A DNA stretch of 64,000 nt from Burkholderiaceae bacterium (GCA_031538895.1 JAVKLU010000020.1:108-64107), one strand, 5' to 3'; shown: positions 29,891 to 37,136, numbered from the stretch's first letter. A program made the numbers and translations. Notes: a model not told the origin generated them from the letters alone.

Positions 29891-29903
29891 GCGGCTACGC
29901 CGC
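29891..29903 (-). promoter_or_regulatory. short GC hairpin 3' of VR2 (candidate DGR target-recognition hairpin)
   Basis: GCGGC-TAC-GCCGC, located 5 nt beyond the stop codon of target 2. An analogous hairpin sits in the same position after VR1. Confidence 0.5.
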
Positions 29904-29907
29904 CCAA

Positions 29908-30438
29908 TCACTGACTGGCACGCACCAACCGAACTTGGCCGTAGTAGCCGTAGCGGTTGCCGTCGCCGACCTTGCCGTAGCCGAAATCGACGACCCAGGC
30001 GTAGCCGCTAGTGCCCACATACGGCGAAGATGACCAGTACCAGTTGCTGGGCGTGCTTGGAAAGGCCGTGCTGTCGATGCTGGGGTTTTGGCAACCCTTG
30101 TCGGCGAGACTGGTCAGCTCTTTCACATTGGGCAGACGCCAACCAGTCGTGCTGTTTGCGGTGTTGGCACTTTTGGCCCGGACCAGCGCTTGCTCGTGTG
30201 TATAACTTGCTGCCGTGCCGGTGCAGCTGCTGCCGCTCAGGGTTTGGCCCTCGCTGCAGCGCTTCCACACCAAGCCGGTGCGCGTGTCGGTCACCTCCTC
30301 GCCGCTGATGCTGAAGCGCTCTGCGGTGGGCCAGCTGGGGCAGGCGGCATGGGCTTTTAGGGCGGTGGCGCTCAGGGTTGCCGCCACCAGGGCCATGCAC
30401 AGCATGGGGGCCGCAGCCCGTGTCATTGAGTGTTTCAT
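29908..30438 (-). CDS. secreted DUF1566-like (Lcl C-terminal/C-type-lectin-fold) protein, DGR target 2
   Basis: Strong SD (AAGGAG) before the ATG at 30438 and a signal peptide MKHSMTRAAAPMLCMALVAATLSATALKAHA. GWRLPNVKEL motif, with the C-terminus carrying VR2 (…SSPYVGTSGYAWVVDFGYGKVGDGNRYGYYGQVRLVRASQ). Confidence 0.8.
   Translation of the reverse strand: MKHSMTRAAAPMLCMALVAATLSATALKAHAACPSWPTAERFSISGEEVTDTRTGLVWKRCSEGQTLSGSSCTGTAASYTHEQALVRAKSANTANSTTGWRLPNVKELTSLADKGCQNPSIDSTAFPSTPSNWYWSSSPYVGTSGYAWVVDFGYGKVGDGNRYGYYGQVRLVRASQ
29913..30032 (-). repeat. DGR variable region VR2 (120 nt)
   Basis: Aligns to TR end to end. Differences lie at TR adenines, except one C/G site at 29971, with one extra codon. 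Confidence 0.85.
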
Positions 30439-35600: not shown

Positions 35601-37036
35601 GTGGCATACCGCGACAGTCCTTGCAACATAGTGCGTGTCAGCACGCCACCAAACGAGTGCGCCACAATGTGCACTTTTTTGCCAGACAACTTATAAATAT
35701 ATTCTACCGTCGTCGCTAAATCATCCGCCGCCAAACGAAAGCTTTGGTTGGTGTACCAATGGAACTCAAAGGGAACCAAATTATTGCCGTTGGGCAATGC
35801 TGTTTGCATCGCCAGCTTAGGAAAGTTGCCCCAAGTACCTTCCCCTCCGCCAATCGTAAGATTAAAACCATGAACAAATAAAATGGGCTCGTACCCATCC
35901 CATTTAAACGAACGAACATCGCCTGTGATGCTGGTCTGTACTTCATAAGCAGGGCGTAGTTCGGTAGTAATGAAGAGTTCTGTCGCATCCTTAATATCGT
36001 TAAAAGTAGATTTGATCTTGTCCAAAACACCAATCCCAGGATCGTTATAACTTGGTAGACCGAAAGTCGGATCCCAAAATCGTTCGGAAACTACATCTAA
36101 AGCCGAATCGAACGCAACTTCATCCCCCTGTAGCACCACTTGCCCTAAGCCATTGCTAATAATAGGTTTAATGCCATTGTTGGCGGTACTGTGAGATACG
36201 TAAGGGTCTTTATTCAGGCTGGGGCTAGAAAATGCTTGTACAACTCTCTGTATTGCTTGGCTTATTCTCGCCAAAATAGACTGGCTACCGACATTCGCAC
36301 TAGATAAAACGCTATAGGGGTCATAAGCCGGTTTTCCTTGAGGTAGGTTAATTTTTATATTTTTATCTAATGCACTTTTCGGCAAAGAAAACTGAATTTT
36401 TTTACCGTTATCGGTATTCGCTACGGTAGTGGCTATTTGCACGGGTGCTTCTAGATTATTTGCAGATATGCTTGCCGTTTTCCCGTCACCAAGGTCAATA
36501 GACGCCCCCTGTGCGCCAAGACTGGTTGTGCTTTGTACAGCCGGTTCTACCACCGTTAGAGTGCCTTTAATGAGTGCGTAATTTTGAGTCTGAACATTGG
36601 TTGCCCTGACCACATAGTCTTGCTTGCCTACTGTTAGTTTTTTAGCATCAATTGTGAAATAGGTTTCGCCGTCTGTGCCTTTGGCTAACTGAGACATTAC
36701 GCCACTATCAAGCGTATACGTAATATCTGCTGGCCGGACGCTAGCTGCATAGCTGGCTTTAACTTGCCCATATACCGCTTGTCCTTTCACTACAGAAGTA
36801 GCGTTATCCAAAATTTGTACACTGAGAAGACCCAAATCTTGGATGTCTACTTGCTTAGCAGCCGTGGTAGGCGTGGTAGGCGTGGTAGGCGTGGTAGGCG
36901 TGGGCGTGGGCGTGGGCGTGGGCGTGGGACACGCGGTCACTAGTCCCACCAAAACACTGGCAATCAAAAACCGCGCAAAGCGTAAAAAACTTGGCGCGCT
37001 TGGTCTGTTTATTTGCGCCCGACGGGCGCGCGTCAT
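32621..37036 (-). CDS. large surface lipoprotein with an alpha/beta-hydrolase (lipase/esterase-like) domain and a C-terminal DUF1566/CLec domain, DGR target 1
   Basis: Lipobox LVTA-C after a hydrophobic segment, then a (TP)n/(TTP)n linker. Hydrolase motifs ILFVHGF and HIVAHSFGG (G/A-x-S-x-G). C-terminal SDWRLPTADEL motif and VR1 (…SSPYVGDSYYAWDVGFGGGDVSSRGYYYRYDGLRVRLVRASQ). Confidence 0.85.
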   Translation of the reverse strand: MTRARRAQINRPSAPSFLRFARFLIASVLVGLVTACPTPTPTPTPTPTTPTTPTTPTTAAKQVDIQDLGLLSVQILDNATSVVKGQAVYGQVKASYAASVRPADITYTLDSGVMSQLAKGTDGETYFTIDAKKLTVGKQDYVVRATNVQTQNYALIKGTLTVVEPAVQSTTSLGAQGASIDLGDGKTASISANNLEAPVQIATTVANTDNGKKIQFSLPKSALDKNIKINLPQGKPAYDPYSVLSSANVGSQSILARISQAIQRVVQAFSSPSLNKDPYVSHSTANNGIKPIISNGLGQVVLQGDEVAFDSALDVVSERFWDPTFGLPSYNDPGIGVLDKIKSTFNDIKDATELFITTELRPAYEVQTSITGDVRSFKWDGYEPILFVHGFNLTIGGGEGTWGNFPKLAMQTALPNGNNLVPFEFHWYTNQSFRLAADDLATTVEYIYKLSGKKVHIVAHSFGGVLTRTMLQGLSRYATAHREVGGKVASLMTLGSPHSGILSADGVIDGISLPDGQFAGGLIPGCQEVSCYEMGKPVTAFSEQTKQDVGLSGNYAQAGYLPAAIARSENNLPTIPVYVGIGLGVNTSNLVSDGDYLISFAGQRFRANNTSQARSNSLLQQAKVGNATVTEVLLGLTPEIRPNQTIANNKLPVGRAGGYYHSSTTGRGNWGSSDDGKLGLMASPNYGCATTVSCLHAGYLLFRQLQNDVLTGANVGELTLPSNMAAQNLVVKNKAAWTSAQLATIQAMIDNAKAKSIISGKRIVWERLSENERKSELGKLAGIPDTERTSYIKNNYAEQFAALNQYLSSDLYKANWSATGQGLYGRGALNDWLAVAGAGVKSVTGVLQIAYPVAAIAADGGTQVIQQTSDTQKMVQYIIALNRSAQIISLINNCGPDVKSRVNEYQTAVREISNDNLTSKNFTTAITVPLQCVSSLASAGNMSNAALIADVFTGSVTLSASNEKMVMAQVWLNLVNSALAMFPDSVSMQYAKGTLNVVTGFLDAYVIGQQMNARADEAFVISSDVILKGSQKMTDTLMAEPVLAILNAKTTDLYTAGFDATIKTSVPTVTVGSSVDFWLEGAPSNVGSVAWQLTGYTEQTANVSAGVAGKISITINTAGSYAATITYYGGANKTGTLLGTQTYTFTVCAVGQGLNASGVCAKNSPTPPTITSAAAQANGTVVVSGTAANNANIKITWPDNSTALLVASGSGGWSTRSSSTYAAGALVKANTYNTTGNSALVSATITAYTTSKLTDTGITASQCYSAGSNTLISCTSSAAVSLNSQQDGMVGRDVSNNDNSDGKLGLSYSRVGSYALTECVKDNITGLMWEGKPASGSGVTRGNPALDPNGTYTNYHSSYYGSQSQMDATTNTYGYVNAVNARGLCGYSDWRLPTADELQSIVDYSVAYPGPTVDGTWFPNTPSYSYYWTSSPYVGDSYYAWDVGFGGGDVSSRGYYYRYDGLRVRLVRASQ
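32626..32751 (-). repeat. DGR variable region VR1 (126 nt)
   Basis: Aligns to TR with invariant ends. All substitutions I can see are at TR adenines. It is three codons longer than TR. Confidence 0.85.
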
Positions 37037-37043
37037 TAGGGGA

Positions 37044-37136
37044 TTATGCTTGCTTGCTTGCTTGCTTGCTTGCTTGCTTGCTTGCTTGCTTGCTTGCTTG
37101 CTTGCTTGCTTGTAAAAGTGACGATGTTTTTTTCAT
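37044..37136 (-). other. short upstream ORF running through the (AAGC)n tract (candidate phase-variable 5' end of target 1)
   Basis: The ATG at 37136 has AGGA 8 nt upstream. It encodes MKKTSSLL(QASK)n and stops at TAA 37046-37044 with 16 repeat units. It would fuse in frame to the ATG at 37036 with 15 or 18 units. Confidence 0.4.
37048..37111 (-). repeat. perfect tetranucleotide SSR, (GCTT)16 on + strand = (AAGC)16 on the coding strand
   Basis: 64 uninterrupted nt counted directly, ending 11 nt upstream of the annotated start codon of DGR target 1. Confidence 0.95.

Follow-up and report, generated by a model that had tools for sequence, protein, structure and literature searches.

A stretch of 64,000 nucleotides deposited as Burkholderiaceae bacterium (GCA_031538895.1, JAVKLU010000020.1:108-64107; hereafter the window) carries, on its minus strand, the components of a diversity-generating retroelement (DGR). 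The locus opens with a (CAAG)16 tract and continues through the gene of a 1471-aa lipoprotein (target 1) that ends in a first variable repeat (VR1), an Avd gene, a 117-nt template repeat (TR), a reverse transcriptase (RT) gene and the gene of a 176-aa secreted protein (target 2) that ends in a second variable repeat (VR2). This order had been proposed in an initial annotation of the sequence, and each element was found at or adjoining the place assigned to it, within ~29.9-37.1 kb (Table 1). Likewise recovered were the tetranucleotide repeat, a perfect (CAAG)16 that reads (TGCT)16.5 on the plus strand, the invariant ends SSPYVG...VRLVRAS of all three repeat copies, and the DGR-typical IGNLTSQ and YVDD boxes of the RT, both of which can be read in its open reading frame (ORF). 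The VRs occupy the last ~40 residues of each target, within the Lcl_C/DUF1566 domain, and the TR is embedded in a 78-aa pseudo-ORF.

Table 1. Features of the DGR locus and its immediate surroundings, in window coordinates.
Feature	Position	Strand	Remarks
TR	31852-31968	-	117 nt core, 38 A, 16 AAY codons
VR1	32626-32751	-	126 nt, aa 1429-1471 of target 1; TR + 9 nt
VR2	29913-30032	-	120 nt; TR + 3 nt
GC hairpin of VR1	32606-32616	-	GCGC-GAA-GCGC, 9 nt past the shared VR1 end
GC hairpin of VR2	29891-29903	-	GCGGC-GTA-GCCGC, 3' of VR2
RT	30435-31850	-	IGNLTSQ + YVDD; about 464-471 aa, start codon uncertain
Avd (predicted)	32059-32589	-	176 aa; ~125-aa four-helix-bundle core + low-complexity tail
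Target 1	32621-37036	-	1471-aa lipoprotein, lipobox VTA-C36
Alpha/beta-hydrolase domain of target 1, lipase/esterase-like	34937-35884	-	residues ~385-700
Lcl_C (DUF1566) domain of target 1	32633-33082 (aa 1319-1468)	-	Pfam PF07603, E=3.2e-27
Target 2	29908-30438	-	176-aa secreted protein; signal peptide (cleavage between AHA and A) + Lcl_C only
Leader ORF MKKTSSLL(QASK)n	37044-37136	-	contains the repeat; AGGA 8 nt ahead of ATG 37136
(CAAG)16 repeat	37049-37112	-	perfect, 64 nt; 12 nt upstream of the main ATG
High-GC islet	29700-33600		~62% vs ~47% background
brnT + brnA	29217-29839	+	convergent with target 2; both Pfam families above cut-offs

Among the three repeat copies, the AAC-rich one was taken as the TR. 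Aligned to it, VR1 is changed at 21 of the 38 adenine sites and at none of the 79 non-adenine sites (Fisher p=4e-13), and VR2 at 20 of the 38 adenines and one of the 79 other sites (Fisher p=3e-11); pooled over both VRs, 41/76 TR adenines but only 1/158 non-A sites differ. The initial annotation would have counted TR-VR mismatches unrelated to adenines against a DGR; the alignment gave adenine-specific changes in both repeats. The same pattern was seen across seven VRs from four cassettes that share an identical TR, where 143/266 A sites and 1/553 non-A sites are changed. With its 18 mutable codons, the TR would allow a computed ~1.3e20 peptides per target. All three copies share a 22-nt 3' end, GTTCGGTTGGTGCGTGCCAGTC, that occurs exactly three times in the 64 kb and not at all in shuffled sequence; a second TR in the window was ruled out, the shared end being limited to these three copies.

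Beyond this shared 3' end, the copies part. Both VRs run on as AGTRATTGGG followed by a GC stem-loop, whereas the TR runs on as TGTGGAGCGCC, diverging at once and carrying no stem. The hairpin is found at the same position, with differing stem sequences, in five VRs, comprising the two of the window and three from other loci. A hairpin downstream of the VR only is required for homing (Guo et al., 2011; PMC3240598). Because both VRs, and not the TR, carry AGTRATTGGG and the GC hairpin after the shared end, the VR/TR boundary appears to have the polarity of initiation of mutagenic homing sites (IMH/IMH*-like). In an Rfam scan of the window, tRNA was the only match.

The RT is intact, and its ORF begins directly after the TR without a separate spacer. 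The best PDB match is the bRT of Bordetella phage BPP-1 (8ub7, E=5e-43), followed at a distance by the group II protein LtrA (3e-14) and retron RTs (1e-10 or weaker), and the PHROG phage RT family is matched at 9e-100. Judged by this ranking of best matches, the RT falls into the DGR clade. The 176-aa ORF upstream of the TR is identified as Avd from profile comparisons: it matches the PHROG family 'Avd protein of DGR' at 7.7e-9, and NCBIfam DivGenRetAVD is matched by all 12 aligned homologs from related loci (best 7.6e-14), the window protein by itself scoring under the NCBI curated cut-off. A profile of the 12 homologs reached the four-helix-bundle structure 2gsc; a single-sequence search of the PDB gave nothing useful.

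The most telling comparison is with a locus from SRR25831486 (L031), whose flanks are 88% and whose cassette is 99.7% identical to the window. The two agree at 656/657 positions of the Avd segment, 117/117 of the TR and 1814/1819 of RT plus target 2. VR1 and VR2 are only 79% and 86% identical, respectively, with all substitutions at TR adenines; the VR2 copies, both 120 nt long, differ at 17 A sites. Because the VRs diverged while the rest of the cassette stayed 99.7% identical, the cassette has probably been active, undergoing mutagenic homing since the common ancestor of the window and L031. As judged from sequence, the element is a genuine and complete cellular DGR of a well-described kind, and probably a recently active one.

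The VRs also vary in length. Those belonging to this TR measure 120, 120, 120, 120, 122, 126 and 117 nt, and the added codons fall in AAC runs ((AAC)4), a feature overlooked in the initial annotation. TR/VR length differences occur in 7% of DGRs, 74% of them adjoining AAC, and RT slippage has been proposed as their source (Wu et al., 2018; PMC5758913); the BPP-1 system in Escherichia coli showed negligible indels. Simple replication slippage fails for VR2 of the cassette in the metagenome-assembled genome UBA7470 (L010), because its extra codon duplicates no neighbouring codon. An older 120-nt TR behind the VR excess was rejected, since window and L031 both have a 117-nt TR in cassettes that are 99.7% identical. 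Every length change is an insertion, and a +3 occurs at the same run in both near-identical cassettes; our best guess is slippage combined with selection on loop length. The lineage is a strong example of the known AAC-adjacent indel behaviour. VR1 of L010 is masked with N.

Target 1 is composed of a signal peptide with lipobox Cys36, a Pro/Thr linker, a beta-rich region, the alpha/beta-hydrolase domain, a helical region, Ig-like modules and the Lcl_C domain with VR1. The gene is also present, at 94.5% nucleotide identity, in a separate assembly of the same species (GCA_031539125.1, L027; flanks 98.8% identical). An assembly chimera was ruled out, as L027 and a further locus, L021, independently reproduce the same gene. 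Within the hydrolase domain, Pfam DUF676 and DUF900 exceed their cut-offs, weak sequence matches point to bacterial lipases, and all 20 homologs compared keep HG389-390, the S461 nucleophile (AHSFGG), D595 and H661/H696. An AlphaFold2 (AF2) model of the domain (pTM 0.78, core pLDDT >90), when compared with the PDB using Foldseek, retrieved lipases and esterases on top (BlEst2, 1e-7), with 299 matches at E<=1e-3. The model and the conserved residues identify the domain as a predicted Family I-like lipase/esterase-type alpha/beta-hydrolase with a GxSxG-type elbow and a Ser-Asp-His triad. The description of target 1 as an 'enzyme-bearing' lipoprotein, offered in the initial annotation, therefore holds, on account of the Pfam scores, the invariant residues and the model matches.

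A search with the N-terminal 1143 aa of target 1 returned 69 proteins, many of them 1000-2000 aa long, sharing the hydrolase and ending in an Lcl_C domain, others in FGE-sulfatase or Lectin_C; to judge from these sequences, target 1 is a member of a recurring family and no one-off. One homolog (L034, 45% identity) itself ends in an SSPYVG...VRLVRASQ-type VR, followed by an Avd homolog and then by a TR stump that retains the 3' end only. Target 1 is a lipid-anchored protein and, since it couples a lipase/esterase-like domain to a variable binding tip, probably works at the surface as a hydrolase or adhesin able to change what it binds. The main text of the surveys of Wu et al. (2018) and Roux et al. 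(2021) makes no mention of hydrolase or lipase targets. The coding sequence of the Pro/Thr linker after Cys36 (36863-36928) consists of two perfect tandem arrays (9-mer x4.6 and 6-mer x5.3), and L021 and L027 have a GGCGGT array (Gly run) in place of the second; because the array copy numbers differ among L021, L022 and L027, linker length is also polymorphic. For target 2, the Lcl_C domain was matched in Pfam at E=5e-32, and a phmmer search against the PDB gave only a spurious Fab match. This protein is predicted to be a minimal secreted binder.

The 5' end of target 1 has a second source of variation. The leader ORF passes directly into (CAAG)n and then into CATAATCCCCTA-ATG, and the leader and its own ATG are conserved in L021, L022 and L027. 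The main ATG of target 1 has no Shine-Dalgarno sequence. CAAG copies number 16 in the window, 14 in L021, 14 in L027 and 11 in L022, and in L031 the tract is degenerate and non-repetitive. Within the 64-kb window, (CAAG)16 is the sole tetranucleotide array. With its long perfect repeat at the 5' end and a copy number that varies among assemblies, the locus has the layout of a simple sequence repeat (SSR) contingency locus. GCAA-class tetranucleotide tracts at ORF 5' ends are a classic phase-variation device of Haemophilus influenzae (PMC2651432). By computation, a copy number of n=0 mod 3 fuses the leader in frame to the main ORF, so that the signal peptide is preceded by an added (QASK)n; n=1 mod 3 (e.g. 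n=16) puts the leader stop 8 nt ahead of the main ATG, and n=2 mod 3 lets the leader TAA overlap the main start (TAATG). Because repeat length sets the leader frame, the repeat is most likely a stochastic translational switch on target 1, perhaps graded via termination-reinitiation. Avd, TR, RT and target 2 continue on the strand of target 1 after a 31-nt gap, and it is a matter of speculation that polarity could couple DGR expression to the repeat switch. No paper linking SSR phase variation to a DGR target was found in the literature searched, where both terms occur together only in two general reviews. A stand-alone YcaO gene with YcaO_C (37488-39242) is divergent from target 1 and shares with it the 350-nt intergenic region that holds leader and repeat; RiPP-type (ribosomally synthesized and post-translationally modified peptide) partner genes were absent near it.

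Related cassettes were compared to follow the history of the locus. The TR is identical base for base in the window, L010, L031 and a Joint Genome Institute (JGI) metagenome contig (JGI 3300078828, L028). Relative to L010, which comes from an unrelated genome, nucleotide identity is 93-95% for the stretch that starts at the VR1 3' end and takes in Avd, TR and most of RT; it is 89% for the last part of RT with target 2, and only 68% in the lectin domain upstream of VR1. The upstream targets of L010 and L028 have unrelated N-terminal parts, the proteins being 1283 and 1304 aa long. The near-identical RT of L010 (7654-9495) contains two in-frame repeat-like insertions, e.g. PVIPSAPVIPAQAGIH and SFPPQPSFPRKRESMDPRVREGDE, of a type common to small betaproteobacterial repeat elements, and may be disrupted. 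Because of its GC content (62% vs 47%) and its 89-95% nucleotide identity to the UBA7470 cassette, the cassette appears to have been horizontally acquired. The islet of raised GC spans the C-terminal module of target 1, Avd, TR, RT, target 2 and the 3' end of brnA.

Two close relatives differ in what the cassette is attached to. In L031 (317-1423), target 1 has only 368 aa: the enzyme region of ~1100 aa is missing, the lipoprotein signal leads directly into the C-terminal ~300 aa, and the junction corresponds to ~33538 of the window, exactly the GC boundary. In addition, VR1 of L031 is 122 nt long (+5), and the resulting frameshift brings the stop forward by 8 residues. In L027, the segment from VR1 to pyrF (14255-16480) belongs to a different DGR lineage (~72% nucleotide identity), in which an RT is accompanied by two VR-like copies; brnA is reduced to a 3' stump of 45 aa. 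Both VR copies of L027 share a 3' flank of 50+ nt, and the sequence past VR1 runs directly into RT, which is why we infer a cassette replacement followed by VR1-TR recombination over the shared 3' end, a step that would have deleted Avd and TR. Since window, L031 and L027 present three states of one locus, it appears to turn over fast by recombination at conserved repeat and lectin sequences. More distant RT relatives (52-56% identity) were found on seven IMG/VR contigs (L035-L041), each with Avd and two tandem Lcl_C ORFs directly upstream. Because these relatives on predicted viral contigs also carry Avd and two Lcl_C targets, the RT lineage is indicated to be mixed cellular and viral, and the two-target layout to be ancestral to it.

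The cassette lies between ycaO and pyrF, in synteny with the sister genomes. All other ORFs checked in the window are housekeeping genes, among them prmC, lolA, addAB-like genes, gyrA, edd/eda, rplS, trmD and rimM, as well as rpsP, ppa, murI, pyrF, ycaO, a branched-chain ABC transporter, uvrA, pst/phoU and pcnB. Among the ORFs scanned across the 64 kb, none encodes phage structural proteins, an integrase or a transposase, in agreement with the earlier statement that the stretch holds no phage or integrase genes. A scan with the 22-nt VR-end motif gave 0 matches in IMG/VR viral contigs and only two distant VRs in metagenome contigs. The locus does not have the character of a phage-borne tropism-switching element of the BPP-1 type, given the housekeeping flanks and the lipoprotein and secretion signals on the targets. 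The initial call of a complete non-phage DGR is thus sustained by RT, Avd, TR, two A-specific VRs, IMH-like ends, VR-only hairpins and the housekeeping context.

Taken together, we read the locus, with a probability of about 80%, as a chromosomal, horizontally acquired Avd-TR-RT DGR that serves two DUF1566/Lcl_C targets and has a repeat switch on target 1. The TR, the A-specific VRs, the shared 3' end with VR-only hairpins, the intact RT and Avd were read from the sequence; the steps of the process are modelled on the BPP-1/Legionella paradigm. The avd-TR-RT region would be transcribed, and RT-Avd would copy the TR RNA into cDNA, misincorporating opposite adenines. This cDNA would then replace VR1 and VR2 and so rewrite 18 codons in each target, at the face with which the C-terminal lectin-like domains bind their ligands, and slippage at the (AAC)4 run would yield the VR length variants. 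Above this specificity variation of target 1, the repeat would add on/off or graded phase variation.

A number of observations weigh against this interpretation. The closest sequenced relative, L027, has no Avd and no TR within 24 kb, and because of this loss it is evident that the locus can decay. Six of the seven lineage VRs are longer than the TR, which could mean that homing is rare. The stems downstream of the VRs measure 4-5 bp, with loops of 3 nt, and are shorter than those of phage DGR hairpins, which have 7-10 bp stems and GRNA loops (PMC3240598). For the C-terminal 321 aa of target 1, the AF2 model was of low quality (pLDDT 64.6); it retrieved nothing significant from the PDB and no C-type-lectin fold, for which reason the proposed C-type-lectin-like fold is taken from the Pfam Lcl_C assignment. 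Finally, all four observed repeat numbers are not multiples of 3 and are out of frame with the leader, and the internal ATG of target 1 could serve at any repeat length.

The repeat could also be regarded as a neutral hypervariable tract in the 5' leader, with target 1 being translated from ATG 37036 whatever the value of n. Gene callers place the start of target 1 at the internal ATG in every assembly, and a proper lipoprotein signal peptide already results from that start. The leader ATG is out of frame in all four alleles seen, and L031 has no more than a degenerate tract. It is less easy to see why a neutral tract should be a 64-nt perfect tetranucleotide repeat, unique of its kind in 64 kb, placed exactly between a conserved leader with Shine-Dalgarno sequence and ATG and a main ATG lacking such a sequence, in a position typical of known contingency loci, and with leader stops that overlap or abut the main ATG (TAATG). 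We consider neutrality a serious contender, if one with less than even chances. Another doubt is that the DGR is a recently silenced relic with frozen VRs, whose differences stem from old homing plus replication slippage or recombination between VR alleles. VRs of 126 and 120 nt against a TR of 117 nt, and the excess in six of seven lineage VRs, would suit a relic, as would the loss of Avd and TR from L027, the bare TR 3' end in L034, the frameshifted VR1 of L031 (+5 nt, 8 residues short) and the fact that VR2 is identical in four assemblies. Nevertheless, the RT, Avd and TR remain intact, four diverged cassettes carry one and the same TR, and the extra codon in VR2 of L010 is not explained by simple replication slippage. 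Cassettes that are 99.7% identical and have VRs differing at at least 17 positions, all of them TR-A sites, are hard to account for without recent mutagenic homing. We regard silencing as an unlikely explanation.

An origin from a degraded prophage or other mobile element, whose targets would mediate phage-like receptor binding, can be weighed against the genomic context. The RT relatives on seven IMG/VR contigs, where Avd and two Lcl_C ORFs are arranged as here, the foreign GC of the cassette and the toxin-antitoxin (TA) modules that flank it in the window and in L028 would agree with such a source. Set against these are the syntenic position between ycaO and pyrF, the ORFs scanned over the 64 kb, which include no gene of a phage, integrase or transposase, the VR-end motif without a match in IMG/VR, and the targets themselves, which have a lipoprotein signal (target 1) and a secretion signal (target 2) and no tail-fibre features. 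We regard this origin as highly improbable. Returning to the chromosomal DGR with a repeat switch, we tentatively consider an extended form of it, with less than even chances, in which two independent hypermutation devices are stacked on one gene, a leader-repeat gate and a DGR that redraws both binding sequence and loop length, and are joined to a portable cassette. Polarity over a 4.4-kb untranslated message might then gate the downstream avd-TR-RT genes. As part of the same tentative proposal, Avd-TR-RT-target 2 would recombine at VR/lectin sequences and so plug diversification onto resident proteins; the proteins found upstream of the cassette are the 1471-aa lipase here, the 368-aa stub in L031 and, in L010 and L028, unrelated proteins of 1283 and 1304 aa.

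Much of the layout has precedents. In a survey of DGRs (Wu et al., 2018; PMC5758913), avd-TR-RT was the commonest architecture (68%), 13% of elements had two targets, about 70-90% were chromosomal, 14% had DUF1566 targets ('category d', Legionella-type; half of them short, half with appended domains) and about 20% had atypical GC; the order target-avd-TR-RT-target and near-identical DGR cassettes in unrelated hosts were described as well, and whole clades of cellular DGRs have been reported (Roux et al., 2021). In contrast, neither a strain-variable tetranucleotide repeat at a DGR target start nor a lipase-like enzyme domain was found in the literature searched. The initial annotation's verdict that the arrangement is not textbook and the target set unusual consequently stands in part: layout and two targets are documented, whereas the repeat at the target start and the lipase-like domain are uncommon.

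The closest known counterpart is the DGR of Legionella pneumophila (LtdA; category d/CLec2, architecture B), which is likewise chromosomal, non-phage and horizontally acquired, with an avd-TR-RT core, a DUF1566/Lcl_C-type domain whose C-terminal tip holds the VR, and a lipoprotein target expected to be displayed on the surface. Unlike the single target of Legionella, there are two targets here, the main one being a 1471-aa protein with a lipase-like hydrolase domain and a signal peptide without an evident Tat-type RRxFLK motif; moreover, no integrative element or integrase lies nearby, a tetranucleotide repeat precedes the target, and the VRs are longer than the TR. The BPP-1 DGR (Mtd, bAvd, bRT), which provides the closest solved RT, shares Avd, the adenine-specific pattern, a GC-rich 3' end common to TR and VR, and a hairpin downstream of the VR. 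It differs in being phage-borne, in having a tail fibre and not DUF1566 proteins as target, in its 8-bp stem with GAAA loop as compared to 4-5 bp stems with 3-nt loops, in its negligible indels as opposed to the VR length variants seen here, and in that the RT ORF of the window follows the TR without spacer. With the contingency loci of H. influenzae (5'-GCAA/CAAT tracts), the repeat has in common its class (GCAA being CAAG rotated), a long perfect tract, a location at the translational start of a surface-protein gene and a copy number that differs between strains. Here, however, two of the three frames let the leader ORF stop at the main start or overlap it, so that the effect may be graded expression and not simply a truncated protein; the repeat belongs to an uncultured proteobacterium from the environment, and the gene behind it is also a DGR target.

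What makes the locus noteworthy is the strain-variable repeat in the leader ORF, the lipase-bearing target family, and the swapping and decay of cassettes among sister genomes. A few related genomes thereby show a cellular DGR in several evolutionary states: in full and apparently active, with or without the enzyme in its target, or with the cassette swapped for another lineage in which TR and Avd are lost. The range of DGR targets is extended to a recurring family of giant lipase-like lipoproteins, which suggests that DGRs can retarget an enzyme, beyond adhesins. If the repeat truly switches, bacteria would combine on/off phase variation with retroelement-based specificity variation on one surface protein.

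The adjacent TA module named in the initial annotation was only partly upheld: BrnT and BrnA are present, but the toxin is truncated and the pair shows no sign of serving the DGR. At 29410-29470, a tandem duplication of 28 bp (TTCAACGTGACGATGRTCGTCACATTTT x2.2) shortens BrnT (29217-29447) to 76 aa, whereas homologs of 90% identity or more measure 88-98 aa and end in ...RHIFSMRKANEREQSKFG; because of this shortening, the BrnT toxin may be inactivated. In L028 (12786-15233), from another organism, the same cassette is followed by ParDE, HicAB and HigBA (HigB/Gp49-HTH). TA modules thus seem to travel with the cassette lineage or to pile up beside it, but show no tie to DGR function. As for the host, its Edd reaches at best ~60% identity to proteins of Burkholderiales, Neisseriales and methylotrophs, its ribosomal proteins form singleton 90% clusters, the GTDB representatives do not include its genome, and the Neisseria DNA uptake sequence (DUS) is absent from the window sequence; on this evidence, the host would be a novel, unplaced proteobacterium (Pseudomonadota) of ~47% GC. 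Its genome seems rich in minisatellite-like repeats. Perfect or near-perfect arrays of longer units occur in the window at 24688-24761 (21-mer x3.5, between trmD and rplS), 55848-55912 (14-mer x4.6), 11881-11947 (14-mer x4.8, after gyrA), 47181-47248 (18-mer x3.8, at the uvrA 3' end) and 23306-23335 (8-mer x3.8).

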